Shown here: piece after piece, positions 10,808 to 63,357 of the stretch
Position numbering within the stretch: position 1 is the first letter of the stretch
Layout: each line of letters opens with the position of its first letter
IMG/VR virus record: IMGVR_UViG_3300045973_000169
Coordinates: 13,000-76,999 of that record
Source: a virus
Reading direction: 5' to 3' (one strand)
DNA length: 64,000 nt
Program-made: the position numbers and the translations under genes
The notes under the pieces: model-generated
The model's database searches: none
Seen by the model: only the letters and a program-made list of their open reading frames with translations
What the model was told of the DNA's origin: nothing

Positions 10808-10829
10808 CTCTTACACGAAAGGAGATACA

Positions 10830-11033: not shown

Positions 11034-11061
11034 TATAAACTCGCTTGAAAGGAGAATTACC

Positions 11062-11436: not shown

Positions 11437-11445
11437 CAATCCGCA

Positions 11446-11490: not shown

Positions 11491-11551
11491 GTAGTACACT
11501 TGAGGAACATATATTCTTCAGTGCATATTATATTACGAAAAGGAGCTTCAA

Positions 11552-27648: not shown

Positions 27649-27858
27649 ATGTTAACATTTTGTTTAATAGTTTTAATAGTTTATCTAACTCCTACTTTAT
27701 TACTTTTAGCACTTTGTGTGTATTTAAGAACAATAGCTAAAGCAGATATTGATATAACACTTAAGAATACATTTAGTTGGTCTTTTGCTTGGCCCTGGTG
27801 GGTAATTATAGGGTTGATTGAAGACTTTAAAAGGAGAAGAGAAAATGATTCTAATTGA
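27649..27858 (+). CDS. small membrane protein (69 aa)
   Basis: Two TM helices. Confidence 0.5.
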   Translation: MLTFCLIVLIVYLTPTLLLLALCVYLRTIAKADIDITLKNTFSWSFAWPWWVIIGLIEDFKRRRENDSN

Positions 27859-29157: not shown

Positions 29158-29623
29158 ATTTTATGGTAAGAGTAAACCTTTCTTTGAAGGTAGTAACTTT
29201 TATCCTGCAAAATTTAAAGATAGTGCTGGTACTATATGGGATACAACTGAACATTATTTTCAGGCTATGAAGTTTGAAGCTGGATCTGAAATTCAAATTG
29301 GACCAGAAAGCTTTATCCCAATTCGTAAGCATATACATGATCAGCCTACTCCTATGAAAGCAGCAAACGAAGGACGTAGGAGAGATTTTCCACTCCGTAG
29401 TGATTGGGAACAAGTAAAAGACCAAATGATGTATAATGCATTACGTTATAAGTTTACACAGAATCCAGTATGTAAACAGGCTCTTCTTGATACTGGTGAT
29501 GCTGAGTTAATTGAAGCTTCTCCTGTTGATTATTACTGGGCAGAAGGTGCAGATGGTACAGGCAAGAATATGCTTGGTAAACTGTTAGTTAAATTACGAG
29601 AGGAGATCAGAAATGAACAATAA
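29141..29623 (+). CDS. NADAR / YbiA-like (DUF1768) domain protein (160 aa)
   Basis: FYG..FSNF..A.F...G..W.T.EHYFQAMKF, LRYKFTQNP, LLDTGDAELIEASPVDYYWAEGADGTGKNMLGKLL match the NADAR signature. Confidence 0.8.
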   Translation: MENVIRFYGKSKPFFEGSNFYPAKFKDSAGTIWDTTEHYFQAMKFEAGSEIQIGPESFIPIRKHIHDQPTPMKAANEGRRRDFPLRSDWEQVKDQMMYNALRYKFTQNPVCKQALLDTGDAELIEASPVDYYWAEGADGTGKNMLGKLLVKLREEIRNEQ

Positions 29624-31262
29624 GTTATTAGCTGTATTAGCATGTGATGGATATAAGATTGGTCATAAAGATCAAGATGCTCCTGGCGTTGAAAATAAGT
29701 ATTATACATGGACTCCTCGTTCAAACAAATATCTTCCTGAAGTTGAGAAGGTAGTTGTCTTTGGTGTTCAAGGTTTTATTAAGATTCATCTTCTTCAGTT
29801 CTTCAATGAGAACTTCTTTGAATTAGATAAAGAGTATGTTGTCTTTGAATACAAGCGTATTCTTAAATCATACTTGTTCAAAGAGGAGATTGATACAACT
29901 CATATTGAGGAACTGCATGACTTAGGTTACTTGCCTTTAAAGATTAAAGCTATTAAAGAAGGGATAAGAGTCCCAATCAGAACTCCTGTTTTAACTGTTG
30001 AGGTTACTAATGGGAAATTTGCATGGTTGGGTGGATATATTGAAGATATTCTTTCTACTTCTCTTTGGCAGCCAATGACTGTTGCTTCTATTGCTTATGA
30101 GTATAAGAAACTCTTTAAAGAGTTTGCAATGGAAACTGTAGGAAATACTGAATTCTGTAAGTTCCAAGGTCATGACTTTAGTTATCGTGGCTTGATGGCT
30201 GGTCTTGATGCTATTCAGGCTTCAGGTTCAGCTTGGTTACCTTTGTTTGTTGGAACAGATAATATTCCATCTATTCCTTATATGGAAAATGTCTATGGAG
30301 CTGATAGCTCTAAAGAGATTATTGGGTGTAGTGTACCTGCTTCTGAACACAGTGTAGCTGAGACCTATATGGAATTTGATGATGATGGCAATCTTATCCC
30401 TGGTTGGGAAGATGAATATCTCCGTAGATTGATTGTTGATATTTATCCTACTGGGATTGTTTCAATTGTAGCAGATACAATTGATCTCTTTGAGCTTATT
30501 ACTGTTAAGTTAGTTGCTCTTAAAGAAATCATTATGGCTCGTGATGGTAAGACTGTCATTCGTCCTGATAGTGGCAACCCTGCTGATATCCTTTGTGGAT
30601 ATGTTATTAAGAAATTAAATAACCCACTTAATGGTGATGCTGATAAGTACTATCTTCCTTTTGATCGTTGGACTGATGATGGATTTAATGCTTACCAGAC
30701 TACTGATGGAAAAGTTTATAACTTTGATCATAAAGAATTATCTATTGCTGAAACTAAAGGTGTAGTTGAACTTCTTTGGGAGATCTTTGGTGGAACTATC
30801 AATGCCAAAGGATACAAAGAATTAGACTCACACATTGGTACTATCTATGGTGATTCTATTACTATTTCTTTAGCTAGAGAGATCTGTAAAAGACTTAAAG
30901 CTAAAGGCTTTGCTAGTACTAACTGGGTTGCTGGTGTTGGTAGTTACAGCTTGTTAGGACAGTTAAGTCGTGATAGTCTTGGATTTGCACTTAAAGAGAC
31001 CTCTATTACTAGAAATGGTAAAGAGATAGCTGTCTTTAAGGATCCTAAGACTGATGATGGAACTAAGAAATCAGCTAAAGGACGTGTAGTAGTTGTACCT
31101 TCTCCTATTGGTGATGGTTCAATGCGTACTATTGATAACCTTACCAAAGAACAGGAAGAAAAGGTTGGAGCTTTCAACTTACTCCAGACTGTATTTGAAG
31201 ATGGTGTATTGCCTGCAGAAACAACATTAGCAGATATTCGTATTTGTTTAGGTGGAATTTAA
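29613..31262 (+). CDS. nicotinamide phosphoribosyltransferase (NAMPT/NadV) family enzyme (549 aa)
   Basis: N-terminal ACDGYKIGHKDQ matches the NAPRTase-family DSYK.TH signature; the size fits NAMPT-like enzymes. Confidence 0.8.
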   Translation: MNNKLLAVLACDGYKIGHKDQDAPGVENKYYTWTPRSNKYLPEVEKVVVFGVQGFIKIHLLQFFNENFFELDKEYVVFEYKRILKSYLFKEEIDTTHIEELHDLGYLPLKIKAIKEGIRVPIRTPVLTVEVTNGKFAWLGGYIEDILSTSLWQPMTVASIAYEYKKLFKEFAMETVGNTEFCKFQGHDFSYRGLMAGLDAIQASGSAWLPLFVGTDNIPSIPYMENVYGADSSKEIIGCSVPASEHSVAETYMEFDDDGNLIPGWEDEYLRRLIVDIYPTGIVSIVADTIDLFELITVKLVALKEIIMARDGKTVIRPDSGNPADILCGYVIKKLNNPLNGDADKYYLPFDRWTDDGFNAYQTTDGKVYNFDHKELSIAETKGVVELLWEIFGGTINAKGYKELDSHIGTIYGDSITISLAREICKRLKAKGFASTNWVAGVGSYSLLGQLSRDSLGFALKETSITRNGKEIAVFKDPKTDDGTKKSAKGRVVVVPSPIGDGSMRTIDNLTKEQEEKVGAFNLLQTVFEDGVLPAETTLADIRICLGGI

Positions 31263-38430: not shown

Positions 38431-39168
38431 ATGATAGGTGAAAAGTTTGGTAAGTTAACAGTTGTCTATTTCAATGATTTAAATAAGAGAAAAGAGAAAC
38501 TATGGTTATGTCTTTGTGATTGTGGAAAAGAAATAATTGTAAAAACAAGAAATCTTAAAATTGGAGCAACAAAAAGTTGTGGTTGTTTATCAACAGGCCC
38601 AAAAATTTCTGATCTTACTGGGAATAAATTTGGTGATTTAGAAGTTATATCTTATGCACATCAAGATAAATGGAGAACAAGTTTTTGGAATTGTAGATGT
38701 ATTTGTGGTAATTATACTGTTGCTAGTTCCGCAAATCTTAAATCTGGAAATCGTATTTCTTGTGGATGTAAACATGATGAATGGAAACATAATAAACCAA
38801 AAGGTCAAGATAGTCCACATTGGAATTCAGATATAATTGATAGAAATAGCAGACGACTTGACTATGAAGCAAAAGACTGGGCAATAAGAATTAAAGAACG
38901 TGATAAATATAAGTGTTTAGTTTGTGGTAAATCTCCAAGTGGAGAACTAACAAGTCATCATCTATATAGCTATAATGACTATATAGATTTAAGATATGAT
39001 ATTGATAATGGAATTACTTTATGCGAGCAATGTCATTATTCTTTCCATAAAAAATATGGATTCAAAAAGAACACAAAAGAACAATTTAAGGAGTGGAAAA
39101 ATGAGTTATATGGCAGTAATAGCACGGTTGAAGAATGTCCGTGCTCATCCGAATGCAGACCGGATTAA
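38431..39168 (+). CDS. HNH homing endonuclease with N-terminal Cys-rich DNA-binding region (245 aa)
   Basis: RBS aaggagtctcaaATG; C-terminal SHHLYSYNDY...NGITLCEQCHYSFH; the 3' end overlaps the RNA ligase start by 68 nt. Confidence 0.75.
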   Translation: MIGEKFGKLTVVYFNDLNKRKEKLWLCLCDCGKEIIVKTRNLKIGATKSCGCLSTGPKISDLTGNKFGDLEVISYAHQDKWRTSFWNCRCICGNYTVASSANLKSGNRISCGCKHDEWKHNKPKGQDSPHWNSDIIDRNSRRLDYEAKDWAIRIKERDKYKCLVCGKSPSGELTSHHLYSYNDYIDLRYDIDNGITLCEQCHYSFHKKYGFKKNTKEQFKEWKNELYGSNSTVEECPCSSECRPD

Positions 39169-40471
39169 ATTAGCTAATTGTTTAGGCTATCAAGTTATTG
39201 TAGGGCTTGAGGCTAAAGATGATGATATTGTTATTTTATTTCCTGATGATGGGCAATTAAGTCATGAATATATTTTTAATAATAACCTATATAACAAAGC
39301 AGAGATGAATAAAGATCCTAGTGTTAAAACTGGATTCTTTGATCATAAACGTAGAGTAAGATGTCAGACATTTAGAGGAGAGAAAAGTGAAGCTTATACT
39401 GCTGATATCAGAAGCGTGGAATTTACTGGGGTTGATATTGAAAGTCTCTATGTGGGTGTCCGTTTTGATGTTCTTAATGATATTAGCATTTGCAATAAGT
39501 ATATAACTCAAGCCACTAAGGATGCTGCTAATAAGAATGGGAATAAAGATAAGGTTAAACTTAATGTTATTCTTAAGAAAATGTTCCCTGAGCATATAGA
39601 TACTGAACAGATTAGATTTGCAAGAGATGAAGATCTAATTGGATTAGTTACTATTACTCATAAGCTTCATGGTACAAGTGCTAGAACTGGATATATTAAT
39701 ACTCCTGTTGAAGTACCTTTAAAATGGTATCATAAACTTTGGAATCAGTATGTTAAGTTAGTTGACTATCTCCCTCCTAAGTATACTCACGAGCAGAATG
39801 AAGCTTTATATTTTGCTCCTACTACTATCAAGAAATGGAAAACTATTTTTGGTACACGTAGGGTAATTAAAGGTCCTGTTAATGAAGAAGCAACTGATTA
39901 TCGTTCTTTATGTGCTAAACGATTAGCTCCTTTTATTGAAAAGGGTGAAATCTGGTATTATGAAATTGTAGGGTATGAAGATACTGGTGCTCTTATTATG
40001 GGGAGTGTTTCTACTAAAGAAATGCCTAAAGAATTCCAAAAAAGGTTTGGTGAAACTATTACTTACAAGTATGGTTGCTTACCTGGGACATGGAATATTT
40101 ATGTTTATCGTATTACTCATCAGAATGAAGATGGTGTTATCTATGAACTTCCATGGGCACAAGTAAAAGCTAAATGTAATAATGCTGCTATTAAGCATGT
40201 TCCTGAAATTGATGTTATTTTAACAGAAGTAGCTTTAGATGGTACAATTGATGTTGAAGTTTTAAAGCAAACAATTGAACATTACACTGAAGATGAAGAT
40301 ATTGCTGAACCCCTTGATGCTTCTCATATACGTGAAGGTATCTGTGTTAGGATTGATAATCTTGAGACTGGTAAAATGAAAATATTCAAGAATAAAACTT
40401 TTGTATTTAAGGTGCTTGAAGGTATTGTTAAGGATTCTGGTGTAGTTGATACAGAAGAAGCTGAAGGGTAG
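39101..40471 (+). CDS. RNA ligase, Rnl2-type KxHG nucleotidyltransferase (456 aa)
   Basis: RBS aaggagtggaaaaATG; motif I ITHKLHGTSARTG resembles T4 Rnl2 EKIHGTN; a ~170-aa N-terminal extension precedes the NTase domain. Confidence 0.75.
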   Translation: MSYMAVIARLKNVRAHPNADRIKLANCLGYQVIVGLEAKDDDIVILFPDDGQLSHEYIFNNNLYNKAEMNKDPSVKTGFFDHKRRVRCQTFRGEKSEAYTADIRSVEFTGVDIESLYVGVRFDVLNDISICNKYITQATKDAANKNGNKDKVKLNVILKKMFPEHIDTEQIRFARDEDLIGLVTITHKLHGTSARTGYINTPVEVPLKWYHKLWNQYVKLVDYLPPKYTHEQNEALYFAPTTIKKWKTIFGTRRVIKGPVNEEATDYRSLCAKRLAPFIEKGEIWYYEIVGYEDTGALIMGSVSTKEMPKEFQKRFGETITYKYGCLPGTWNIYVYRITHQNEDGVIYELPWAQVKAKCNNAAIKHVPEIDVILTEVALDGTIDVEVLKQTIEHYTEDEDIAEPLDASHIREGICVRIDNLETGKMKIFKNKTFVFKVLEGIVKDSGVVDTEEAEG

Positions 40472-42949: not shown

Positions 42950-44170
42950 ATGTTTAGATCTTTAAATGATAAAGCCTACTTAGTTGGAGGCGCAGTACGT
43001 GATCTCCTATTAGGCCATGAACCTAAAGATCGAGATTATGTTATTGAATGTACAGAAGCTGAATTTGAGAGAGTATTTCCCGATGCTGAAAAGGTCGGGA
43101 ATACTTTCCCTGTTTATTTACATCCTGAGACTGGTGATGAGATAGCTTTAACAAGAACAGAAAGACCAACAGAAACTAAATTTGGTGCTCTTGGTTCATA
43201 CCAAGGATTTGAAATTATTGGAGTTGGAGTGTCTATTCTTGATGATCTTAGAAGAAGAGATTTTACTATTAACTCTATTGCTCAAAAATATCTTACGAAA
43301 GAAATCATTGATCCTACTAATGGTAAGTTTGATTTAAAAAATAAGATGTTACGCTGTGTTAATTCTGAAGCTTTTAATGATGACCCTTTAAGAATCTATA
43401 GAGCTTGTAGATTTGCTGCTAGATTTGATTTTAAAGTTGAGATGCATACATTTAAATTAATGAGAGACAATTGTCATAATCTTTTCTTTGTAGAAAAAGA
43501 AAGAGTAGTTAATGAATTAAAGAAAATGTATTCTCAGACTGATAAGCCAGGTATATTCTTTAGGTTATTATTTGAGCTTGGTGGTATGGCACATCATTTT
43601 GATCCTATTTTAGACCTTACTGTTATCCCTGCTGGACCTAAACAATACCATGGTACTAATACTGGGTTTGATCATACAATGGAAGTGATAGATAGATGTA
43701 AGGCTAATGGATTAAGCTTTGATTGTTTTATAGCTTGTCTATTCCATGATACAGGTAAAGCTTCAACTGATCCTTCTATATTACCTCACCATTATGGGCA
43801 TGAAAATGGGTCTTATCGTATTAATAAAGAGTTCTTTGCTGAGAATAGGTTTGATGCTAGTACGGTAGATTTAGCTTTAACTGTAGGGAAGAATCATATG
43901 AAGACTCATGTTATAACTAAGATGAGGACTAATAAAGTAGTTGATTTTCTTAGAGGAATTAGAAGATTAGATGAGTTTATTGATTGTTGTAATTGTGATC
44001 ATCCTTTTACTGATAATACTTTAGATTATATCAATCTTTTCAAACAAGTAAGAAAAGAAACTGTTGTTGAAATTCCTAAAGAAACAAAAGATAAATATGA
44101 ATTTGTTGGTAGGTTATACACTAAAGCCCTTGGGCAAAAGATAAAGGAATTTAAAGAAAATGGCAAATGA
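42950..44170 (+). CDS. cca: class II tRNA nucleotidyltransferase (CCA-adding enzyme) with C-terminal HD domain (406 aa)
   Basis: LVGGAVRDLLLG...DRDYV, RRDFTINSIA, DPLRIYRACRFAARF and the HD motif LFHDTGK. Confidence 0.85.
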   Translation: MFRSLNDKAYLVGGAVRDLLLGHEPKDRDYVIECTEAEFERVFPDAEKVGNTFPVYLHPETGDEIALTRTERPTETKFGALGSYQGFEIIGVGVSILDDLRRRDFTINSIAQKYLTKEIIDPTNGKFDLKNKMLRCVNSEAFNDDPLRIYRACRFAARFDFKVEMHTFKLMRDNCHNLFFVEKERVVNELKKMYSQTDKPGIFFRLLFELGGMAHHFDPILDLTVIPAGPKQYHGTNTGFDHTMEVIDRCKANGLSFDCFIACLFHDTGKASTDPSILPHHYGHENGSYRINKEFFAENRFDASTVDLALTVGKNHMKTHVITKMRTNKVVDFLRGIRRLDEFIDCCNCDHPFTDNTLDYINLFKQVRKETVVEIPKETKDKYEFVGRLYTKALGQKIKEFKENGK

Positions 44171-44713: not shown

Positions 44714-44936
44714 AATAAAAGAATCAGGGATCTATTTAGTTATAGGACCACCTGAATGTGTTTCTTTGTTACCTACTGAAAATATATTATTTCTTTATCC
44801 TAATGGTGATCTTGTTATGGAAGGTAATAATTATATGGATTGTTTAAATGATGGTGAAGATGAGATAATTGAAGTTATCTGTCTTGCTAAATCAGAGAAC
44901 CATCCATCTTTGAGAGAAGGTGTTTTTGATGAGTGA
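44700..44936 (+). CDS. hypothetical acidic protein (78 aa)
   Basis: ORF overlapping both neighbours. Confidence 0.45.
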   Translation: MKLNKIKESGIYLVIGPPECVSLLPTENILFLYPNGDLVMEGNNYMDCLNDGEDEIIEVICLAKSENHPSLREGVFDE

Positions 44937-46062
44937 TGTTAACAAATGGTTAACTCAAAATACTATATTTAAAGGTGTGTTAGGGTCTAGGGCTTATGGT
45001 ATCCATAATGCTGATAGTGATTATGACTATAGAGCTGTAGCTATTGCTCCTAAACAATATTATCTTGGATTAGATAATTTTGAACAACAGGAAACTAAAA
45101 ATCCTGATTCGACAGTTTTTGATATACAAAAATTTACAAAACTTGCTTTAGAATGTAATCCTAATATTATTGAGTATTTATTTCTCCATCCAGAGAATAT
45201 TCTTATCAATACTCCTTATTGGGATATATTAGTTGAGAATAGAGATATATTCCTAAGCAAGAGAGCTAAACATAGATATCTAGGATATGCTTATTCTCAA
45301 CTTAAAAGAGTCCAATCTCATAAGCAATGGTTGCTTAATCCTGTAGACCATAAACCTACCCGTGAGGAGTACGGATTGCCTGCTACAGAGTCTTTGAATA
45401 GAGAACTAATAGGACAGATAGAGTTAGTGACTAAAGACTGTTTAAAAGAGAATTTAGACGTTATACTTAATAGTTCTGCAGATGAGTTAACTATTACTGG
45501 ATTAAGAAACTATTTAGAGTTTGATGTAAGAGGTGCTCTTGATGAAGCTTTTGCTGATTTTGTTTATCCTACTATATTTAACTTATTAATTAATAAGATA
45601 GATGTAATGTCAACTCTTGCAATAGATAATTTCTCAGAAGAGATTGTAGCTGTATATACTAAAGAGAAGTCTTATTCTTCTGCTATGAGTAGATGGAAAC
45701 AATACCAGAATTGGGTTGATACAAGAAACCCTGCTAGAGCTGAACTTGAAGCTAAGTTTGGATATGATACAAAACATATAGGACATGTATTTAGGCTCCT
45801 TAAGCAAGGACAAGAAATCCTGTTGGATAAAACATTAACTGTTAAATTAAAACCAGAGGATAAAGAAGAGATTCTTGCTATTAAAGCTGGTAAATTTACA
45901 TATGATGAAATAATAGATTTAGCTTCTATGAGGATGGCTTTCTTTGAAGAGTTATATGAGAGATCTACTCTCCCACATAGTCCAGATTTTAATAAAGCAA
46001 ATACATTGCTAGTAAAAACAATAGAAAAATTTTATGAGGATAAAAATGAAACAAATTGTTAA
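44929..46062 (+). CDS. Pol-beta-superfamily nucleotidyltransferase (377 aa)
   Basis: ATG after gagagaaggtg; GVLGSRAYGIHNADSDYDYRAV equals the G[SG]x9-13 DxD minimal NTase motif. Confidence 0.65.
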   Translation: MSDVNKWLTQNTIFKGVLGSRAYGIHNADSDYDYRAVAIAPKQYYLGLDNFEQQETKNPDSTVFDIQKFTKLALECNPNIIEYLFLHPENILINTPYWDILVENRDIFLSKRAKHRYLGYAYSQLKRVQSHKQWLLNPVDHKPTREEYGLPATESLNRELIGQIELVTKDCLKENLDVILNSSADELTITGLRNYLEFDVRGALDEAFADFVYPTIFNLLINKIDVMSTLAIDNFSEEIVAVYTKEKSYSSAMSRWKQYQNWVDTRNPARAELEAKFGYDTKHIGHVFRLLKQGQEILLDKTLTVKLKPEDKEEILAIKAGKFTYDEIIDLASMRMAFFEELYERSTLPHSPDFNKANTLLVKTIEKFYEDKNETNC

Positions 46063-49905: not shown

Positions 49906-50168
49906 AAAATGCTTTTGAAATATATAGTGATGCAGAGAAACTTGAAGAACAACTTAAACCATTTCAATACTTTATGGCTGGATGTGGGATAACTGGTTTT
50001 GCGAGTGCTTTTTTAGCAATAATATGGTCTCCATTTGTTTATGGGGTATTTGGTTTGTTTTTAGCTGGTATTATTGCTGGGTTTCTTGTCCAATACGAAA
50101 ATAAAATTGGGCGATGGAAAAGAGAAGCTATTAGACTCTATGGTAGAGATGAAGAGGAGTATTGGTAA
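49902..50168 (+). CDS. membrane protein (88 aa)
   Basis: Two TM helices. Confidence 0.5.
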   Translation: MKNAFEIYSDAEKLEEQLKPFQYFMAGCGITGFASAFLAIIWSPFVYGVFGLFLAGIIAGFLVQYENKIGRWKREAIRLYGRDEEEYW

Positions 50169-50926
50169 TGCTTGATCTTACTGATAAAAGATCCTTTTAT
50201 AATATATATCCTATTAAGAAGGCTAATGGTAAGATTAGGATTATACATGCTCCTAAAAAAGAACTTAAAGATGAACAGAAAAAGCTTGCAGATGCATTAG
50301 AAAAATGGTATAATCCTCCTGATTGTGTATTCGGTTTTATCAAAGGTAAATCTCCTAAAGACTTAGCTCAACATCATATTAATAAAGATTGGATTGTTAC
50401 TCTCGATATTAAAGATTTCTTTCCAAGTATAACTAAAGCTCTGTTAAAAGAGTTATTAAGATTAGATGACTATTGGATAGAAGTTGCAACTTATGAAGAT
50501 AAACTTATACAAGGTAGTCCAGCGAGTCCTATATTAAGTAATCTTGTAATGCTATGGCAGGATAAGTTCTTTGAAATGTATGCTTTTGTAAATGGGTATA
50601 CTTATAGTAGATATGCAGATGATTTAGTGTTATCAGGGATGGGTAAGCCTAAATGGGATTATATCAATTATATAGAGAGCCATTTAAATGGATTAGGTTT
50701 TAGATTGAATAAATCTAAGATTAAATTTATGTTTAAGAATCAAGAGCAAAGAGTTCTTGGTATTACAGTAAATGATAAGGTTAGTCTAAACCATAAAGTT
50801 AGAAAGAAGCTTAAAAATACGATTAAATATAATCCTATGAGCAATGTATTACAAGGCTATATGGCTTATGTTAATAGTATCAATAAAGATCAATTTAATA
50901 AAATAAAAGAACAAACAAAAGGGTAA
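50168..50926 (+). CDS. reverse transcriptase, retron/group-II-like, thumb-less (252 aa)
   Basis: RT motifs 1 YPIKKANGKIRIIHAP, 2 VFGFIKGKSPKDLAQHH, A LDIKDFFPSI, B-prime IQGSPASPILSNL and C YSRYADDLVLSG; QGxxxSP rather than the DGR-type IGxxxSQ. Confidence 0.85.
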   Translation: MLDLTDKRSFYNIYPIKKANGKIRIIHAPKKELKDEQKKLADALEKWYNPPDCVFGFIKGKSPKDLAQHHINKDWIVTLDIKDFFPSITKALLKELLRLDDYWIEVATYEDKLIQGSPASPILSNLVMLWQDKFFEMYAFVNGYTYSRYADDLVLSGMGKPKWDYINYIESHLNGLGFRLNKSKIKFMFKNQEQRVLGITVNDKVSLNHKVRKKLKNTIKYNPMSNVLQGYMAYVNSINKDQFNKIKEQTKG

Positions 50927-50929: not shown

Positions 50930-51808
50930 ATGGAAGGCAATATTGAACCTATTGGTCTTTATAATCCGGAAATTGTAGATGCTAAACTATTAAAATATAT
51001 CATTCCTAATGGGAATCCAATTGAAACTATCTTTGCTCCCTTTATGGCAAAGATGTTCAAAAAGAGTAATGTAATTATTAAATGTAAGTTAGAAAAATTT
51101 AAAAAGAAATTTAATATTACATCTGACGTATTAGAACCTATGGAAGATATATGGAAGAACTTTGATGTTATAGTAGCTGGTGGGAAACTTATTGACTTTT
51201 GTAATAACAAAACTAAAGAAGAATCTACTAATGACTATGATATGTTTTTTATTTCCTCTACTCCTAATAAACAAGGAGAATATGGAACTAGTATTCATAC
51301 ATACTTAACGAAAGAGTTGAAGTTTAATACTACCGCTACATTAAGTTATGTAACTGAATATATAAATGATAATCAAATTAAACTTCAAACTATAAATAAA
51401 GTATATGTTAATGCTGACCATATTTTAGAAGAGTTTGATATCAGAGCTTGTGCTATCTGTACGGATGGCAAGTATGTCTATTGGGTTAAGGGTGCTATTA
51501 GGGACATTAGAGATAAGCAACTTGTTATATTAAATCCTAAAAATAGTCCTCGTGGGATGCATAGGATAGTTAAATATATACAAAAGGGATATGAACTTAA
51601 ATTGCCAGATATGGCTTTGATAAGTATTAGATTCCTTGATGCTTTCTTTGGTTCGTCAGTACAACCTGATATCCAGCAAGAACTTATTAATAGGAATTTT
51701 TCTATTACTCGTAGTTCTATTAATATGGAAATGTATGATGAAATGGTTAATGGAAATACCCATGAGCTAGGTGATGCTGGTATAGAAGCAGCCACTACAC
51801 CGTTTTAA
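50930..51808 (+). CDS. hypothetical protein with minimal-nucleotidyltransferase-like motif (292 aa)
   Basis: IVAGGKLIDFCNNKTKEESTNDYDMFFI fits hGG x15 DhDhhh of Pol-beta/CD-NTase-like folds; weak, by eye only. Confidence 0.6.
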   Translation: MEGNIEPIGLYNPEIVDAKLLKYIIPNGNPIETIFAPFMAKMFKKSNVIIKCKLEKFKKKFNITSDVLEPMEDIWKNFDVIVAGGKLIDFCNNKTKEESTNDYDMFFISSTPNKQGEYGTSIHTYLTKELKFNTTATLSYVTEYINDNQIKLQTINKVYVNADHILEEFDIRACAICTDGKYVYWVKGAIRDIRDKQLVILNPKNSPRGMHRIVKYIQKGYELKLPDMALISIRFLDAFFGSSVQPDIQQELINRNFSITRSSINMEMYDEMVNGNTHELGDAGIEAATTPF

Positions 51809-51888: not shown

Positions 51889-52101
51889 ATGGAAAACGTA
51901 AACAGTACAGTAGTAGAGTTCGCAAATGTTGACTTCGTAGCAGAATTGATTGGGGACCTTGATGCAGAGCATGTCCGTGATATGCTTTCTGATACTTACC
52001 AGTTTCTTGAGAATGCAGTTTATACTGAGTCTTATGATCCTGAGCTGGAGCAGAAGCGTATTATCTTCTCTGAGAAACTTGGCGATAAAGGTCAGTTTTA
52101 A
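51889..52101 (+). CDS. acidic small protein (70 aa)
   Basis: RBS aaaggaaaaacaaATG. Confidence 0.5.
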   Translation: MENVNSTVVEFANVDFVAELIGDLDAEHVRDMLSDTYQFLENAVYTESYDPELEQKRIIFSEKLGDKGQF

Positions 52102-52132: not shown

Positions 52133-52168
52133 AGCGTCTATGATAGAGATATCATAGGCGCTTTTTTA
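52133..52168 (+). terminator. strong rho-independent terminator
   Basis: 12-bp stem AGCGTCTATGAT / ATCATAGGCGCT (one G-U), 6-nt loop, then TTTTTT. Confidence 0.75.
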
Positions 52169-52180: not shown

Positions 52181-52483
52181 ATGGATTATGAAACAAGCAA
52201 TAAGATTGTAGTAGAGATTTTAAAGTTATCTAATGAAGAATCAAAAGTATATGATTTTGCTGAAATAAGTAAGTTTAGTGAATCATTGCCAAAAGAAATA
52301 ACGATTAATAAATTTGTTAATAGTATCCCTGGTATAGATGAAAAGTTAGAAGAATTATTAGATTCTTTATCTGAGTATTATAACTCACAAACTATCTTTA
52401 CTAATCTTGGTGTTATCTTTGGGAAACTTGTTACAAATACAAATTTCGATTATTATAAAGAGATGCAAAATGAACAGATATGA
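52181..52483 (+). CDS. hypothetical acidic protein (100 aa)
   Basis: ORF after terminator; RBS tgaggttaatATG. Confidence 0.55.
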   Translation: MDYETSNKIVVEILKLSNEESKVYDFAEISKFSESLPKEITINKFVNSIPGIDEKLEELLDSLSEYYNSQTIFTNLGVIFGKLVTNTNFDYYKEMQNEQI

Positions 52484-53294
52484 AGTTGGTAATCACTCAA
52501 CAAAAATATGTCAATCTTATATTGTTGCTGGTTTATATAAAAAAGGATTTTTAAAATCTAAAGCATTTACTTTCACTAATAATACAGAGGATCTACAAAA
52601 TAAATTACATCATATAATTAAATCATCTGTAAACAAAGAGATTGATAAAGATTTTAGAGAAGTATTTACTGAAGTTAGATTTTCAAGATGGCAGGGGCTA
52701 AGAGTAAGTTTGCTTTTAACTAATCAATATGGTAAATGGGCTATGTTTAAGGCTAGGTCTAAAGCTATCCTAGATAATGCTGCTATAGGTTTATCTGGAG
52801 TTATGAAATTAACTTTAAATGGTAACCTATTATCGTATGCATTTGATGGTTTAAGTAGTAGTATTAATCCAAGTCAGTATTCCAATAGTACAACTTTAAT
52901 TAATATAAGAGAGACTTTAGATAATGTTATTAGTTGTATTATGTATATTCCATCTAGTATAGCTGAATTTGGTAACCTGGCTAAAGAGATTAATAAGATA
53001 GATATTAATTACAATTATTCTATTAAAGATATTAGAGATATTTTTAATTCATGTCATATTCATTCTACTAGTCAAAGAGGTCCTTTAACTAACTTACAAT
53101 TATCTCTTAATACATTTATTGGGAATGATCTAGATGGACTTGAAGATAGACTTGGTACTATTGTAGATATTGAACCTAAGTATAAAGATTTATTTGTACA
53201 AATGGAAGGTATGAGTTATTATCCTTCTCCAGGACTTGTTGAGCTATTAGAGTATTTAAATGTAACTATAGGAAGATTAAATGGACATCCTTGA
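52470..53294 (+). CDS. hypothetical protein (274 aa)
   Basis: Internal ATG chosen; the track start at 52407 would overlap the previous gene by 77 nt. Confidence 0.55.
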   Translation: MNRYEVGNHSTKICQSYIVAGLYKKGFLKSKAFTFTNNTEDLQNKLHHIIKSSVNKEIDKDFREVFTEVRFSRWQGLRVSLLLTNQYGKWAMFKARSKAILDNAAIGLSGVMKLTLNGNLLSYAFDGLSSSINPSQYSNSTTLINIRETLDNVISCIMYIPSSIAEFGNLAKEINKIDINYNYSIKDIRDIFNSCHIHSTSQRGPLTNLQLSLNTFIGNDLDGLEDRLGTIVDIEPKYKDLFVQMEGMSYYPSPGLVELLEYLNVTIGRLNGHP

Positions 53295-54015
53295 ACTTGA
53301 AGAAACAGAAGAAGTAAAAGTAGACAAAAAGACAAAGCCTATGTTTTCAATAAAGGTTTATGGGAATAATTGTATTGTCGATATTAACAATAATAATGGG
53401 AAAGGTAATACTATAAAGACTGTTAAGTTAGAGTCTTTAGTTAAAGCTTTCCAGAATACAGATACAAAAATTGAATCACCAATTTTACCATTGAATTGTA
53501 TCAGATATCAGGAGCATGGCTCTAATATATCTGTTATCTTATATCATCCGCCTAAGAAGTTCAATGCAACATGTTTTAAAGATGTATTTGAAGATTGTAT
53601 TAGACCAGGGATTGTTATCAAATATATCTTAGGGTATAAGAATGATCCTAACTATGGTAGGTCTTATAATATCCAAGACTCTAGATGTTTTGGAGTGGTA
53701 GATGACTTTGGTTTGTTCTCTAATAAGACTCAGTTATTTGGATTACCGTTTCCTAATATTAGCTCTGAAGGTTGGGTATGTTGGGGCTCTAATAGTATAG
53801 GTGGAGAGATTAGAGCTTTAACTGGATTGTATGTTTATATTGATAGGATTTTTAATAGTCCTTTTAATAGTCATATTTTCCATAATGCTTTACTTAAGAA
53901 CTATGGCATTAATGAGCCTAGAGATTTGTTTAAGTATATCCAAGGAAGAGATAGATTCCCTAATGAATTACTTGAGAATCTAGGTGCTAAGAATTGGACT
54001 TTAGGTAAACTATAA
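53281..54015 (+). CDS. hypothetical protein, possible E2-like (244 aa)
   Basis: LYHPPKKFNATCFKD has HP(N)-x8-Cys spacing like UBC E2 active sites; speculative. Confidence 0.6.
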   Translation: MDILELEETEEVKVDKKTKPMFSIKVYGNNCIVDINNNNGKGNTIKTVKLESLVKAFQNTDTKIESPILPLNCIRYQEHGSNISVILYHPPKKFNATCFKDVFEDCIRPGIVIKYILGYKNDPNYGRSYNIQDSRCFGVVDDFGLFSNKTQLFGLPFPNISSEGWVCWGSNSIGGEIRALTGLYVYIDRIFNSPFNSHIFHNALLKNYGINEPRDLFKYIQGRDRFPNELLENLGAKNWTLGKL

Positions 54016-54803
54016 TGGGACAAATGACACAATCTAAACAGATATTCCCTATTATTGAGGGACTCCCTGAAGGTGGAGCTAAGTCATTTGTTACTTATTC
54101 TGTTTGTTCTAATGGTATCTTTCAAACTAGATTAGTTTGTGGTAAAGGGTCTATTACTACAAAGGTAGAAGGAATTAAAGGATTACCTGAAGGGAAAGAA
54201 TCAATTGATATCTTGCCTAGGAAAATCCCTATTTCTTACTTCTGGAAGATAGTTGAATTCTTTAGGCATGTTAAGGAAACGTTTAATGAAAAGCTTGAAG
54301 CTTATATTTTATTAGGTTATAACTTTGATGAAGATAAGTTTATGTTATATGTCCCAAAACATTCAGTTGGAGCTGCTCATGTTAAATATGATATTGAATC
54401 TTTTTGGAAAGATTATCCAGGATACTATTTAGTATTAGATGCTCATTTACATTGTGACTTTGGAGCTTTCTGGTCTGGGACTGATAATGCTGATGATAAG
54501 CGTGATAGATTCAGTATGGTTATTGGACATCAAGATAATCCTATTCCAGATGTTAAGCTTAGATTTGCTAATGGAGCTAAACATATAGATTATGATTTAC
54601 GTGAACTCTTTACTAAAGAAACTGAAGATATTGACTTTGACTTTAAGAAAGCTATTAAGAATATAAGTTATACAAAGCCTGAGTTTGTAAAGACTAATAC
54701 AGGATATGTTGGAAGAAATGATGTTTCTTTCTATGATTCATTAAGATTCAGAATAAAACAAGAAAAACAATTCAGTCTTCAAGAATTGTTCCCAGGATGG
54801 TAA
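54015..54803 (+). CDS. JAB/JAMM (MPN+) metalloprotease-domain protein (262 aa)
   Basis: LDAHLHCDFGAFWSGTD equals the JAMM motif H-x-H-x7-S-x2-D. Confidence 0.7.
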   Translation: MGQMTQSKQIFPIIEGLPEGGAKSFVTYSVCSNGIFQTRLVCGKGSITTKVEGIKGLPEGKESIDILPRKIPISYFWKIVEFFRHVKETFNEKLEAYILLGYNFDEDKFMLYVPKHSVGAAHVKYDIESFWKDYPGYYLVLDAHLHCDFGAFWSGTDNADDKRDRFSMVIGHQDNPIPDVKLRFANGAKHIDYDLRELFTKETEDIDFDFKKAIKNISYTKPEFVKTNTGYVGRNDVSFYDSLRFRIKQEKQFSLQELFPGW

Positions 54804-54895
54804 TAAATGGCAACAGATAGTTTTGATGAATTATTTAAATAGTATGATAAACATTGTCGTTATTAACATATAGCTCAAATATTAAGGAGACCTAT

Positions 54896-55627
54896 ATGGC
54901 GTATACTACAAATACATGGATTAATAAAGCTAAAGAAATTCATAATGATAAATACGATTATTCATTAGTTAATTATTCTGGGAATAAAAATAAAGTTATC
55001 ATTATTTGTAAATTACATGGCGAGTTTTTACAAATACCAAATGATCATACGCAAGGGAGAGGATGTCGTTATTGTGGGAGTGAGTCAAAAGGGAACTATA
55101 AAAAGTTGACTATTGAAGAATTTATTCTACGGTCTAATGTAAAACATAATAATAAATATGATTATAGTAAGTCTAGTTATAATGATGGATATAAGACAAA
55201 AATATGTATAATTTGTCCTGATCATGGAGAATTCTTTTCAACTGGGAATAATCATTTAAATGGGAGTGGTTGTCCAATTTGTAATGAGTCCAAAGGTGAA
55301 AACATAATACGTGAATGGCTTATTTCTAATAATATAGAATTTAGAATGTCATATAGATTTAAAGACTGTAAATCAAAACAACCTTTACCTTTTGACTTCT
55401 ATCTTCCAAATTTAAATATTTGCATTGAATATGATGGTGAACAACATTTTAAGGCTACATGGCCTAGAAATGATAAGGATATTGCTACGAAAAATCTTAT
55501 AATGTTACAAGGTAGAGATAAAATTAAAGATTTATATTGTATTAATAATAAAATAAAACTAATAAGGATCCCTTATAATAAATTCAAAAATATTGGACTT
55601 ATTTTAGAGGATAAAATAAAAGGATAA
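54896..55627 (+). CDS. homing-endonuclease-like protein: tandem zinc ribbons plus DUF559/Vsr-like PD-(D/E)xK nuclease (243 aa)
   Basis: Two repeats of KLHGEFLQIPNDHTQGRGCRYCG / CPDHGEFFSTGNNHLNGSGCPICN; C-terminal FDFYLPNLNICIEYDGEQHF resembles the DUF559 endonuclease motif. Confidence 0.7.
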   Translation: MAYTTNTWINKAKEIHNDKYDYSLVNYSGNKNKVIIICKLHGEFLQIPNDHTQGRGCRYCGSESKGNYKKLTIEEFILRSNVKHNNKYDYSKSSYNDGYKTKICIICPDHGEFFSTGNNHLNGSGCPICNESKGENIIREWLISNNIEFRMSYRFKDCKSKQPLPFDFYLPNLNICIEYDGEQHFKATWPRNDKDIATKNLIMLQGRDKIKDLYCINNKIKLIRIPYNKFKNIGLILEDKIKG

Positions 55628-55629
55628 AT

Positions 55630-56757
55630 ATGGATTTATCAGAAATGTTTAAGTATGGAAAAGTTAAATGTGCTCCTACTATGAATACTGAACAGAGGTT
55701 TTCTACTAATGTTCATATAGTTGGATGTGGAGGGACTGGAAGTAGACTAATCCCTTTAGTTGCTCAAGCAATAGCTATACATAACCAGATAATTGCAACT
55801 CAGCCTAATCATAAGGAATATCTTAAAGGACCTATTAATTTAGTCCTCTATGATTGTGATGAAGGCGTTGAGTTGAAGAATCTTGAAAGACAAGGATTCA
55901 TTCCTAGTGATATTGGGAAAAGAAAAGAAGTAGTATTGGCTGAAAGATATGGTGCATGTTTTGGCATTGATATAACTTATGTATCTGATAAGATTAAGTA
56001 CGAGAATACTGTCTTCTCTGGAGCCAATAATATATTCTGTGATTGTACTGACAATCTAAGTGCTAGAAGAGCTATTGAGGATATCTATTATAGGTATTAT
56101 TCTAATTGTGTTCTTATTTCTGGTGGTAATGGTGAAGACTTTGGTCAAGCAATGGTCTCATTTAAGTCTAATAATACTAACTTAAATATGAAAACAAAGC
56201 ATTTTACTGATGAAATATTCAGACTGAAATCTTTAATTGATCATCCAGATGTTAAGACTAATAAGACTATTAATATTCTTCCTACTCTATTAGAGCTATA
56301 TCCTGAATTTAAAGATACTGAAGGTCCTAGTTGTGATGAGGTTTTATTAAGGAATGAACAATCTATGCCTATTAATAACCTTGTAGCTACTCTTATGTAT
56401 AATATCTTTTATAGTGCTATCAATGGAGATCCATTTACTTATAATATGGTTAAATGTAATCTTAGTAATACATTTGATACTAAGAAGATAACACATCCTA
56501 AAGCTATGTTTGAACTTTTAGTAAGTGGGGTTACTGGCAGTAAGAATGGATATGCTGCTATTGAAGAATGGCGTAAATTGAATATTGCTCGTACTGGACA
56601 TTTTGTTCTTGTTGCTGATGTAGTTAAGTTTTTAGAACAGTATAAAAAGAAAGCACTTAATATTGTTAATGGATATATACTTGATAACTGGAAGTTAACA
56701 CCAGCAGATCATATAGTTCTTAACAATGCTATTAAGACTGTTAAGGAGGAGGATTAA
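55630..56757 (+). CDS. E1-like ThiF/MoeB-family adenylyltransferase (375 aa)
   Basis: Rossmann nucleotide loop NVHIVGCGGTGSRLIPLVA at the N-terminus, as in ThiF/MoeB/E1 enzymes. Confidence 0.7.
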   Translation: MDLSEMFKYGKVKCAPTMNTEQRFSTNVHIVGCGGTGSRLIPLVAQAIAIHNQIIATQPNHKEYLKGPINLVLYDCDEGVELKNLERQGFIPSDIGKRKEVVLAERYGACFGIDITYVSDKIKYENTVFSGANNIFCDCTDNLSARRAIEDIYYRYYSNCVLISGGNGEDFGQAMVSFKSNNTNLNMKTKHFTDEIFRLKSLIDHPDVKTNKTINILPTLLELYPEFKDTEGPSCDEVLLRNEQSMPINNLVATLMYNIFYSAINGDPFTYNMVKCNLSNTFDTKKITHPKAMFELLVSGVTGSKNGYAAIEEWRKLNIARTGHFVLVADVVKFLEQYKKKALNIVNGYILDNWKLTPADHIVLNNAIKTVKEED

Positions 56758-56758
56758 T

Positions 56759-56986
56759 TTGCCTTTATATGTAATTAAATGTTCAAATGAAGAATGTGAT
56801 AAATTTAATATCACTTCTGAAGTTAGAATGTCATTTGAAATGTTAGGGATAACAATGTGTCCATCTTGTGGAAGTAAAATGATTCAAGAGGTTAGTAAGG
56901 TTGGATTTAATATCCAGGGATTCTGTCATAAGAATGGCTGGGAAATTGAGCATATGAATTATGATGGAACTAAACCAGACTGGTAA
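56759..56986 (+). CDS. zinc-ribbon protein (75 aa), TTG start
   Basis: RBS aaggaggaggattaaTTG; CSNEEC...CPSCGS. Confidence 0.45.
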   Translation: MPLYVIKCSNEECDKFNITSEVRMSFEMLGITMCPSCGSKMIQEVSKVGFNIQGFCHKNGWEIEHMNYDGTKPDW

Positions 56987-57482
56987 TATATTATTACATA
57001 TAAGTGGACCTTGTTTTAGTGGAAAGACTTATTTATTATCTCATTTAATTGAAGATTTTGCTGGGTTTAATGTTATCACTTTTGAAAAACATTTTGATAG
57101 TGATAATAAAACATTAAAACAAATGTATGGTCATTTCTATCAGGATATATTTAATACACTTGAAACATCTAATGTTATAGGTGAAAGTATATATAGTTCT
57201 AGTAATAAGATTCTTTATTGTAAGTTTAAGAATTTAATTAATATAGTTACATATCCAGATTATGAACATCATAAAAAGAACTATGATAGGTTTGTTGAGA
57301 AATTTGGGAGTAGGGTAGCTAATAAAAGAACTGGGGGTTCATCAATTAGCTTTCTAAGGAATGATTTTATAACGAAGGGCTGTCCTCCTAATAAGATCCT
57401 ATATGATGGAAAGAATTATAATACTGTTAAAGAAGAGATAAAAAATGTATTTAGAAAATATAACAATTATAAAGCAATCTGA
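56961..57482 (+). CDS. P-loop kinase-like NTPase (173 aa)
   Basis: Walker A ISGPCFSGKTYL at the N-terminus; the size fits a small (d)NMP-kinase-like fold. Confidence 0.55.
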   Translation: MMELNQTGNILLHISGPCFSGKTYLLSHLIEDFAGFNVITFEKHFDSDNKTLKQMYGHFYQDIFNTLETSNVIGESIYSSSNKILYCKFKNLINIVTYPDYEHHKKNYDRFVEKFGSRVANKRTGGSSISFLRNDFITKGCPPNKILYDGKNYNTVKEEIKNVFRKYNNYKAI

Positions 57483-61959: not shown

Positions 61960-63357
61960 ATGATAAAAACGTTTATTGATATACTAGAACAATTAGAGAC
62001 TACTACTGGGACTAATGATAAAATTGCTCTTATCAAAGAGAATAAAGATAACCTAGAGTTAAAAGAGTTTCTTAGACTTGCATTAGACAAGAATGTTACG
62101 TTCGGAATAGCTGAAATTGATGAATCAGTTACAAAGTTAACTTATGAAAATAAATATACTAATGTTGAAAGATTTAAAGTTTTAACTCATATGTTATCTA
62201 CCAGAGGTTGGACTGGCGGAGATGCTATGATCCAAATTGTAGCCTTTTTGAATGGATGTATTCCGCTTGAACATAAATGGTACAAGAAGTGTCTTCAGAA
62301 AGATCTTGCATCTATCGGGATTGGACAACGTTTATTTGAAGAAGCATATGATGAAAAAGGTTTTAAGTTCCGTTTAATGCTTGCTGAATCAGAAGAAGAA
62401 CTTGATTCTATCGATGATGAAGAAGGCTGGTTAGATAAGAAGGCTAATGGTGTATGTACTATTATTAGAGTAGAAGATACTAAAGTTAGTGTTATCTATG
62501 GTGGAAGAAATGGCTTAGTAGCAGATAGCTTTTATTTCTTACAAGAAGAGACTGAGAAGCTATGCTCAGACTCACGTGTTATGTCTGATTGCGTGTTTCA
62601 TGGTGAGACCCATGTCAATGATTGTCTTGAGAATACAATGACCTTATATGGCTTTAAATTTCGTCCTATGGAGGATTTCATTGGAGCTAAAGGTAAGATT
62701 AAAGAAAAAGCATATGCCGATTACTTAGCTAAAGAAAAAGAAGTTCTTGCATTTAAGAAAGATGCTAAATTCTGTATCTTTGAACAGTTGACATTAGATG
62801 AATGGGATACCCAAACATGTACTAGAGATTGTGATGAAAGAAAAGAAGCTTTAGCTGAATTACAAAAAGTAATTACTGAACTTGGTCTTAAAAGAATAGA
62901 GATTATACCTACAGAGAAAGTACCTAATCAATCAGTTGCTATTGAGAAAGCTCAAGACTGGATTAAGCGTAAGTTTGAAGGTGGTATTTATAAGAGAAGT
63001 TCAGGTTTCTATGAATGGAAAAGGTCTAGAAATTCTATTAAGATTAAAGAAGTAGTAGATTTTGAAATTGAGTTTGATTCATTTGAAATCCAAAAGAAGA
63101 AGCATAACCCAGATGGTACTCTTAAACCTCCTATGGCTGGTAAGGTATGGGGACATGATTTAAATGGGAATCAATATAAGATTGGTACTGGTAAAGCTTT
63201 ATCTGAAGCAGTAAGAATTGATATGCTTAATAATTGGGATACTAATTATAAAGGTAAGATTGGTACTTGTTCTGCTCAAAGACCTAGTGAAAAAGGAAAG
63301 TATATTTGTGCTCGATTGGACATTATCCGTCTTGATAGAAATAGCTTGGAGGATTAA
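61960..63357 (+). CDS. ATP-dependent nucleic-acid ligase-like nucleotidyltransferase with variant motif I (465 aa)
   Basis: Motif I KKANGVC (KxNG instead of KxDG), motif III VFHGETHV, motif IV FEGGIYKRSSG, motif V WKRSRNSIKIKE. Confidence 0.6.
   Translation: MIKTFIDILEQLETTTGTNDKIALIKENKDNLELKEFLRLALDKNVTFGIAEIDESVTKLTYENKYTNVERFKVLTHMLSTRGWTGGDAMIQIVAFLNGCIPLEHKWYKKCLQKDLASIGIGQRLFEEAYDEKGFKFRLMLAESEEELDSIDDEEGWLDKKANGVCTIIRVEDTKVSVIYGGRNGLVADSFYFLQEETEKLCSDSRVMSDCVFHGETHVNDCLENTMTLYGFKFRPMEDFIGAKGKIKEKAYADYLAKEKEVLAFKKDAKFCIFEQLTLDEWDTQTCTRDCDERKEALAELQKVITELGLKRIEIIPTEKVPNQSVAIEKAQDWIKRKFEGGIYKRSSGFYEWKRSRNSIKIKEVVDFEIEFDSFEIQKKKHNPDGTLKPPMAGKVWGHDLNGNQYKIGTGKALSEAVRIDMLNNWDTNYKGKIGTCSAQRPSEKGKYICARLDIIRLDRNSLED

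Follow-up and report, generated by a model that had tools for sequence, protein, structure and literature searches.

A probable ubiquitin-like conjugation cassette, from a divergent branch of the PRTRC family, in a large bacteriophage

We analyzed a window of 64,000 nucleotides (positions 13,000 to 76,999) from IMG/VR virus record IMGVR_UViG_3300045973_000169, a large bacteriophage of about 206 kb, and found a row of genes that resembles an operon for conjugating a ubiquitin-like protein (Ubl). Positions are those of the whole window, and residues are numbered on the window's own proteins. The locus contains, in this order:

51889–52101, + strand: putative Ubl, 70 amino acids, from a family with a GxKG end and a link to Prok_Ub and PRTRC_C
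52133–52162, + strand: intrinsic terminator hairpin, with a 13-bp stem and a T-run
52181–52483, + strand: accessory protein, 100 amino acids, clade-specific, with no family match
52470–53294, + strand: accessory protein, 274 amino acids, mostly alpha-helical with a small beta-sheet
53281–54015, + strand: E2-like conjugating enzyme, 244 amino acids, similar to Prok-E2_D and PRTRC_B
54015–54803, + strand: JAB/JAMM metallopeptidase, 262 amino acids, similar to PRTRC_A
54896–55627, + strand: free-standing homing endonuclease, 243 amino acids (phrog_559, DUF4379)
55630–56757, + strand: E1-like adenylyltransferase, 375 amino acids, of the ThiF family and similar to PRTRC_ThiF
56759–56986, + strand: small zinc-ribbon protein (CxxC...CxxC), with a TTG start

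A first-pass annotation of 52181–56986 had described a block of co-oriented genes, and all that it described is present: the co-oriented open reading frames (ORFs) are at 52181–52483, 52470–53294, 53281–54015, 54015–54803, 54896–55627, 55630–56757, and 56726–56986. The Ubl gene is upstream of the terminator and lies outside that span.

Judging from their sequences, these genes probably form a complete phage-borne Ubl conjugation cassette that belongs to a divergent branch of the PRTRC family (operon type 6d of Iyer et al. 2006). The prediction of the PRTRC family dates from 2006 (Iyer et al.), and the type 6d operon was described as encoding a Ubl, an alpha-helical protein, an E2-like protein, a JAB peptidase, and an E1 (Iyer, Burroughs & Aravind 2006). 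The family is already known but functionally uncharacterized, and what is new here is the phage-borne variant.

The 244-amino-acid protein matches Prok-E2_D from Pfam (E = 2.9e-08, 34.1 bits, with a cut-off of 25) and PRTRC_B from NCBIfam (E = 1e-5, 25 bits versus a cut-off of 131.45). It contains the motif P156-F157-P158-N159-x7-C167-x-G169 (LPFPN-x7-C-x-G), with Cys167 as the predicted catalytic cysteine. In alignments of 36–37 phage homologues, which we used for all of our conservation counts, N159, C167, and G169 are invariant (37/37). The classical E2 motif is HPN-x(7-8)-C, which the motif in our protein appears to resemble, with Phe157 in the place of the classical histidine. Position 198 is histidine in the window, in its four closest relatives, and in Dina_B (from Ralstonia phage Dina), and is aspartate in 31 of the 37 phage homologues. 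The E2 proteins of operon type 6d were described as missing the classical histidine while having a conserved cysteine and a histidine further downstream (Iyer et al. 2006), and the 244-amino-acid protein fits this description. The earlier suggestion that this protein is E2-like therefore stands (it scores above the cut-off for Prok-E2_D), but its HPP...C arrangement is not the active site: the string exists, but its His89 is found in just 6 of 37 homologues and the cysteine that follows is not among the conserved positions; the actual motif is PFPN-x7-C167.

The 262-amino-acid protein is similar to PRTRC_A (NCBIfam; E = 1.1e-12, 47.9 bits versus a cut-off of 101.8) and to Prok-JAB (Pfam; E = 5e-4), and it contains the JAB motif HLHCDFGAFWSGTD. 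Residues E95, H144-x-H146, S154, and D157 are conserved in 33–36 of 36 homologues, so the protein has the JAMM residues of a type 6d peptidase, and both the match to PRTRC_A and these residues confirm the JAMM protein that was reported in the first-pass annotation. We predict that it is the processing enzyme for the Ubl precursor and also a deconjugase. Its N-terminal extension of about 90 amino acids has conserved G34, K70-I71-P72, and F82-F83, and no arginine or tryptophan conserved above about 65%; in the JAB-N domain of type 6d, an arginine and a tryptophan are strictly conserved (Iyer 2006).

The 375-amino-acid protein belongs to Pfam's ThiF family (E = 1e-13, 51.4 bits, with a cut-off of 28.1), and its top match in NCBIfam is PRTRC_ThiF (E = 1.7e-21, 76.6 bits versus a cut-off of 144.75). 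It scores at most 36.3 bits against models of ThiF itself (cut-offs of 152–275) and 15.5 bits against MoeB (cut-off of 266). Thus, the E1/ThiF-type adenylyltransferase that had been recognized by the string VHIVGCGGTGS is real, and by score it does not group with the biosynthetic MoeB or ThiF enzymes. The ATP loop, G32-C-G-G-T-G37, lies within that string; the predicted thioester cysteine is Cys235; and G32, G34, G35, G37, R87, Q88, D141, and C235 are invariant in 37/37 homologues. As in the E1 proteins of type 6d, no rhodanese or other domain beyond ThiF was found with Pfam or NCBIfam. In a profile search of the PDB, the nearest solved structures were ThiF, MccB, Uba1, MoeB, and SAE2, which match the adenylation domain only, and there was no solved relative of the E2 or of the JAB protein. 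Because the scores for PRTRC_A, PRTRC_B, and PRTRC_ThiF are all below NCBIfam's equivalog cut-offs, we consider the cassette to be a distant branch of PRTRC rather than an equivalog.

The window's Ubl ends with ...KLGDKG-QF, that is, with a two-residue extension past GxKG. Its orthologues in five relatives (L004, L006, L007, L013, and L046; L-numbers are the loci of the relatives that we compared) end with ...F(S/T/A)E(K/R/Q)xG(T/D)KG and 0–3 more residues. A hidden Markov model (HMM) of six members matches the first cassette gene in nearly all of 35 phage loci (E = 1e-14 to 1e-3), and also gp199 of Bacillus phage KLEB27-3 (1.9e-12) and gp251c of Salmonella phage Arash (2e-4). From this family, jackhmmer reaches the PRTRC_C protein of phage Dina (1e-9), which belongs to Pfam's Prok_Ub (2.6e-25). 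The Ubl of L040 matches Prok_Ub directly (2.3e-5), and 6 of 20 family members match it at E ≤ 1. Through these links, the gene at 51889–52101 corresponds to the small Ubl with a conserved C-terminal glycine of operon type 6d.

Among 30 distinct phage members of the family, GxKG is the exact C-terminus in 22, and the other 8 have 1–7 extra residues. Seven of the 30 are tandem arrays of 2–5 domains, each of which ends with GxKG, and two further arrays are found in cultured phages (D69, with 3 repeats, and Edson, with 5 repeats). A PRTRC_C-like bacterial ORF from Thiobacillus likewise ends with GTKG. We take the GxKG ends and the tandem repeats as marks of a Ubl that can be conjugated and that has polyubiquitin-like precursors. 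It had been suggested earlier that a beta-grasp Ubl ending in GG might be encoded with the enzymes; a family that ends in a conserved glycine is indeed found next door, with GxKG instead of GG. An AlphaFold2 model of the window's Ubl, from a two-sequence alignment, has a pLDDT (predicted local distance difference test) of 64 and does not confirm the beta-grasp fold. A profile search of the PDB with the Ubl gave no match, and neither did hhalign against ubiquitin, ThiS, and MoaD (using approximate reference sequences). Synteny with Dina had suggested the 100-amino-acid protein as the counterpart of PRTRC_C, but that protein has no C-terminal glycine and no similarity to PRTRC_C; the Ubl is one gene upstream.

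The block of genes after the Ubl is preceded by a strong terminator, as had been noted: the hairpin has a 13-bp stem and is followed by a T-run (z = -4.1 versus shuffled sequences). A GC-rich hairpin with a U-run is found at the same post-Ubl position in L004, L006, L007, L013, and L046, with differing sequences, so the terminator is present in six genomes of the clade, including the window. That the position is conserved while the sequence differs points to selection for the hairpin structure. The simplest reading of the conserved terminator is that it probably keeps production of the Ubl above that of the enzymes.

We propose that the cassette would operate as follows. The JAB peptidase would trim the Ubl precursor after Gly68 (between GDKG and QF); in relatives with poly-Ubl chains, it would cut after every GxKG. 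Using ATP, the E1 would adenylate the exposed Gly68 and then hold the Ubl as a thioester on Cys235, from which it would pass to Cys167 of the E2 by transthioesterification. The Ubl would then be ligated to an amine, probably a lysine, of one or more target proteins, with the co-encoded accessory proteins and the zinc-ribbon protein as candidate substrates or adaptors. The JAB peptidase could probably also reverse the conjugation. We infer every chemical step, and lysine as the acceptor, from the conserved residues and from the established chemistry of E1, E2, and JAMM enzymes.

Using tblastn with the E1, we found the E2-JAB-E1 trio in Salmonella phage Arash (L001, GenBank OQ632216) and in Bacillus phage KLEB27-3, and we found canonical PRTRC genes (E-C-F-B-A-ThiF) in Dina, which is a temperate-type phage. 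Closer relatives, whose E1 proteins are 37–54% identical, are on contigs of 57–167 kb. An alignment-based scan of IMG/VR identified 35 more loci (a scan of viral contigs with the single E1 protein gave no match), and the full set is also present in the cultured phages D69 (Vibrio) and Edson (Bacillus). The cassette is found in over 35 large-phage contigs. The order of genes, with a small Ubl gene, two variable genes, E2, JAB, and E1, is kept in 34 of the 35 IMG/VR loci, in contigs from Logan/JGI, and in the cultured phages Arash, KLEB27-3, D69, and Edson. A pattern scan that covered 185,579 genomes of bacteria and archaea gave just one distant relative of the E1, from Thiobacillus denitrificans. 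Acinetobacter phage ME3 (L049; 2736–3170, 5196–5846, and 5791–6873) has an E1 and two separate JAB-like fragments, which are separated by about 2 kb and a tRNA-Met, and no E2 or Ubl was detected within the stretch of ME3 that we examined. The ME3 locus may be a degraded or rearranged cassette.

The genes around the cassette vary among its carriers. In the window, a retron-type reverse transcriptase (RT) at 50162–50926 (retron_St85_RT of NCBIfam, 4.6e-50; RT_III-A of PADLOC, 6e-54) is followed by a gene for a 292-amino-acid protein at 50930–51808. Homologues of this protein in L004, L006, and L007 carry a precomputed Pfam label, Gad2, which is an anti-Gabija family (10.1101/2023.05.01.538930). 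Our local Pfam scan of the 292-amino-acid protein and of its homologue from L004 did not reproduce the match, so the label rests on the precomputed annotation of the homologues. The Gad2-like gene lies directly 5' of the cassette in L004, L006, L007, L013, and L046, and the RT lies upstream of it in the window, in L004, and in L007. No retron non-coding RNA was found at Rfam's gathering thresholds.

In the Arash-type clade (L010, L011, and Arash), terminase and structural genes are the immediate neighbors of the cassette. The detection of Gp246–249 and Gp251 in Arash particles by mass spectrometry (PMC10585845) suggests that the homologous cassette in Arash is expressed, although the match between the numbering in the paper and in GenBank is uncertain and as many as 116 proteins were detected. 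In the GenBank entry (OQ632216), whose numbering may be offset from the paper's, gp246c and gp248c are the only genes of the Arash cassette that are marked "structural protein". The E1 and E2 homologues of Arash are annotated as structural on weak grounds.

Across the region, only the endonuclease gene has a DNA match (blastn versus 50,697 phage records), and the match is to known phages, for instance to the "VSR homing endonuclease" of phiIPLA-RODI. The encoded protein belongs to phrog_559 (5.7e-57), which is among the PHROGs for phage HNH or homing endonucleases, and to Pfam's DUF4379, a family of treble-clef fingers; it has two treble-clef zinc fingers and a domain similar to Vsr or PD-(D/E)XK nucleases. 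In L004, L006, L007, L009, and L013, the JAB/E1 junction has no endonuclease (in L004, the JAB stop and the E1 start are 12 nucleotides apart), while in L012, the same family (4.5e-64) is found between E2 and JAB instead (2001–2732). Because the gene is missing from the intact junction in relatives and is placed elsewhere in L012, we consider it to be a mobile insertion. The JAB and E1 genes on either side are full length. So, as the first-pass annotation had proposed, the endonuclease is a selfish, free-standing insertion into the JAB/E1 spacer; it plays no part in the working of the cassette.

Other carriers have interruptions as well. In L014, L019, L023, and L046, an insert of about 0.3–1.1 kb divides the JAB gene into two ORFs, and in a fifth relative (an ENA contig of P0009), a LAGLIDADG-type gene interrupts it. 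Given these interruptions and the placements of the endonuclease, the cassette is a recurrent landing site for selfish elements, apparently a hotspot of introns, inteins, or homing endonucleases.

The two accessory genes between the Ubl and the E2 are conserved within the window's clade only. For the 100-amino-acid protein, the position of the gene is kept and its sequence is weakly kept in L004 (9.5e-13), L007, and L013; the protein has no match in Pfam, NCBIfam, or PHROG. In a confident AlphaFold model (pLDDT of 84.8), the 274-amino-acid protein consists mostly of helices plus a small sheet; comparison of structures gave no convincing neighbor, and the protein's RLNG-HP end is not conserved. 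Using hhalign, we found no similarity between these accessories and those of the Arash clade, Dina_E and Dina_F (PRTRC_E and PRTRC_F), or gp197 and gp198 of KLEB27-3. The genes at 52470, 53281, and 54015 had all been put forward for comparison with E2 and JAB families; 53281 is the E2 and 54015 is the JAB protein, but 52470 is not an E2. Neither the 100-amino-acid protein (52181) nor the 274-amino-acid protein (52470) is a Ubl or an E2. They fit the slot of Iyer's fast-diverging alpha-helical protein, or PRTRC_F, by position only.

After the E1 there is a zinc-ribbon protein, as previously described, but its gene most likely starts at TTG 56759 and not at ATG 56726. The TTG start has a Shine-Dalgarno sequence (aaggagg) and gives MPLYVIKC, which matches the relatives. 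The protein has weak matches to Zn_ribbon_8 and FmdB-type families, and homologues are found directly 3' of the E1 in L004, L006, L007, L009, and L013. It is possible that it is an adaptor or an E3-like factor. The next gene (56961–57482) encodes a 173-amino-acid protein with a Walker-A-like sequence, GPCFSGKT. This gene is kept after the zinc-ribbon gene in L004, L005, and L009, and just downstream of the E1 in L013; no homologue was detected in L006 or L007.

The window as a whole reads as phage DNA: it is AT-rich, at about 30% GC through most of its span, with nearly all of the long ORFs on the + strand. The first 10 kb or so has 43–48% GC and 10–12 kb has 39%, versus about 30% elsewhere, and the ORFs in 1–12000, including one of 1,030 amino acids at 4156–7248, have no match in Pfam or PHROG. 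This GC-richer start could possibly be a block of structural genes, acquired DNA, or an assembly join. A phosphoribosyl pyrophosphate (PRPP) synthetase (27818–28672; phrog_619, 2.3e-67) adjoins a nicotinamide/nicotinate phosphoribosyltransferase (29613–31262; Pfam NAPRTase, 2.1e-28). Pairs of PRPP synthetase and nicotinamide phosphoribosyltransferase (NAMPT) for the salvage of nicotinamide adenine dinucleotide (NAD) reportedly serve phages against NAD-depleting defenses. The window also has a cluster of RNA-repair type (22602–23978, 38996–40471, 42950–44170, 44920–46062, and 61960–63357), with genes for a TROVE/vWA-like protein (DUF7788/DUF2828), an RNA ligase, a CCA-adding enzyme or poly(A) polymerase with an HD domain, an RlaP nucleotidyltransferase, and an ATP-dependent DNA ligase. 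ARAGORN identified tRNA-Leu(TAA) at 10721–10807 and tRNA-Met(CAT) at 18324–18398, neither of which is found by Rfam at its gathering score. Conversely, Rfam has a tRNA at 17828–17909 that ARAGORN missed.

Of the known systems, the cassette is most similar to PRTRC (TIGR03735–03742) and type 6d. They share the families Prok_Ub/PRTRC_C, Prok-E2_D/PRTRC_B, JAB/PRTRC_A, and ThiF/PRTRC_ThiF; the order of Ubl...E2-JAB-E1; an E2 without the classical histidine; the GxKG end of the Ubl (in PRTRC_C from Dina and Thiobacillus); and a fast-evolving, largely helical protein between the Ubl and the E2. In contrast to PRTRC, the window's proteins score 25, 48, and 77 bits versus cut-offs of 131, 102, and 145, and the cassette genes have no matches to PRTRC_D, E, or F (NCBIfam) or to ParB (NCBIfam or Pfam). 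The window also has two clade-specific accessories, a zinc ribbon after the E1, and a post-Ubl terminator, and its relatives have poly-Ubl genes. Also, cassettes like the window's are found in large lytic-type phages, while PRTRC is found in integrative and conjugative elements (ICEs) or plasmids.

The first-pass annotation had instead compared the locus to Bil, Bub, and CBASS. These do use the same enzyme classes, but the nearest family is PRTRC, and neither the E2 nor the JAB protein matches any PADLOC family at E ≤ 0.01. Nor did either of them match a Bil, Cap, or Bub protein in our profile searches of the PDB; these negatives do not include a direct comparison to Bil sequences. The E1 has just a marginal match in PADLOC, to "E1-E2" (E = 0.0019), over the nucleotide-binding loop. 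Like the cassette, Bil (BilABCD) has separate genes for Ubl, E2, JAB, and E1 in the same order, and Bil Ubls with 1–3 beta-grasp repeats are known (PMC11601603). But Bil is encoded by the host instead of by a phage, and the window has two extra genes between the Ubl and the E2 as well as the endonuclease. Cap2/Cap3 of type II CBASS and Bub (6E/DUF6527) share the chemistry of E1, E2, and JAB acting on a C-terminal glycine or carboxylate. However, they have E2-E1 or JAB-E1 fusions along with a CD-NTase substrate or a DUF6527 protease, while the window's enzymes are separate proteins and the cassette genes have no match to CD-NTase or DUF6527 in Pfam, NCBIfam, or PADLOC.

Two more distant comparisons concern the Ubl. 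Eukaryotic polyubiquitin also has head-to-tail repeats that end in a conjugation-competent glycine, sometimes with a short removable cap at the C-terminus, but there is no detectable kinship in sequence, and here the processing enzyme is predicted to be the cassette's JAMM metalloprotease. In phages lambda and T1, a Ubl (TAPI) is paired with a JAB peptidase (TAPK, with JAB and NlpC/P60 domains; Iyer 2006), but without an E1 or E2 and in another gene context.

Several points weigh against our proposal that the locus encodes a complete conjugation cassette. We found no target, E3, or acceptor for it. The E2, JAB, and E1 all score far below NCBIfam's cut-offs for PRTRC, the window's Ubl itself does not match Prok_Ub in Pfam, and the accessory genes lack recognizable folds or homologues outside the window's clade. 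A 2026 paper described the function of the PRTRC cassette as unstudied (PMC13366799), and our searches of full-text literature found no experimental study of phage-encoded or PRTRC-type conjugation.

As for what conjugation would do for the phage, the leading roles, counter-defense or host take-over and virion morphogenesis, are guesses. In the first, the Ubl would be attached to host proteins (such as immune proteins), or the JAB peptidase would strip the conjugates of Bil or type II CBASS. Bil, Bub, and CBASS use the same enzyme classes in defense against phages (PMC11601603); in the window's clade, the cassette directly follows the retron-type RT and the gene with Gad2-labelled homologues; and the PRPP synthetase, the NAMPT, and the RNA-repair genes are in the same window. 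However, this is guilt by association only. It sits poorly with the cassettes of the Arash-type clade, which lie beside terminase and structural genes, and there is no sequence relationship to models for Bil, Cap2, or Cap3, so we consider this role rather unlikely.

That same location in L010, L011, and Arash would suit morphogenesis instead, with the Ubl conjugated to a structural protein of the phage, or acting as its chaperone, like TAPI and TAPK of lambda. Phage tail assembly is a precedent for a Ubl together with JAB (Iyer 2006), and the Arash cassette proteins were found in preparations of particles. But RNA polymerase and ribonucleotide reductase are also among the 116 proteins detected in Arash, so being detected is no proof of being incorporated, and in the window's clade, the neighbors are not structural genes. 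This role, too, strikes us as improbable, though worth keeping in mind.

We also considered that the Ubl might be a sulfur carrier, like ThiS, MoaD, or TtuB: the E1 would adenylate its C-terminal glycine, and the resulting thiocarboxylate would donate sulfur for the thiolation of tRNA, DNA, or a cofactor, with conjugation as a side reaction at most. In favor of this, the E1 belongs to the ThiF superfamily, its nearest solved relatives are ThiF, MccB, and MoeB, and tRNA and RNA-repair genes are numerous in the window (two tRNAs, RNA ligase, CCA-adding enzyme, and RlaP). However, this seems inconsistent with the E1's scores (15–36 bits for ThiF and MoeB models with cut-offs of 152–275, versus 76.6 for PRTRC_ThiF) and with the E2-fold protein and its invariant cysteine, which are always present. 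Also, there is no rhodanese, cysteine desulfurase, or thiouridylase among the cassette genes that we scanned, while the poly-Ubl precursors and the dedicated JAMM peptidase agree with conjugation. A sulfur carrier is therefore very unlikely. Least plausible of all, to the point that we would be surprised by it, is a plasmid-like module for partition or maintenance: PRTRC has been called a "ParB/ThiF partitioning cassette" of mobile elements (PMC13366799; PMC3318190) and the temperate-type phage Dina carries the canonical form, but the cassette genes match none of ParB, PRTRC_D, PRTRC_E, or PRTRC_F, the carriers are large and apparently lytic phages, and the 185,579 bacterial and archaeal genomes yielded just the one distant E1.

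Returning to conjugation by a PRTRC-type cassette, we tentatively raise the possibility, which we hold to be somewhat less likely than not, that large lytic phages with a wide range of hosts (Salmonella, Vibrio, Bacillus, and uncultured lineages) run their own cascade of Ubl conjugation during infection, fed by poly-Ubl precursors that a JAMM peptidase processes. The cascade would covalently tag host or phage proteins so as to disarm bacterial immunity or build the virion. The Ubl systems of bacteria (CBASS Cap2/3, Bil, and Bub) are anti-phage weapons; here, the phage side has the full set of Ubl, E2, JAB, and E1. Our analysis adds to the 2006 prediction a Ubl with a GxKG end, polyubiquitin-like precursors in relatives, and the catalytic residues of the three enzymes, and it reveals a wide distribution of the cassette among large phages, among them the cultured phages Arash (Salmonella), D69 (Vibrio), and KLEB27-3 and Edson (Bacillus). 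Now that the Ubl, the catalytic residues, and cultured carriers are known, the role of PRTRC-type conjugation is directly testable. Trypsin would be expected to leave a single glycine (+57.02 Da) on modified lysines; because this is identical to carbamidomethylation, conjugates may have been overlooked in existing phage proteomics. If our proposal is correct, then this would be the first functional Ubl-conjugation system of a bacteriophage, and it would give the orphan PRTRC family its first function.

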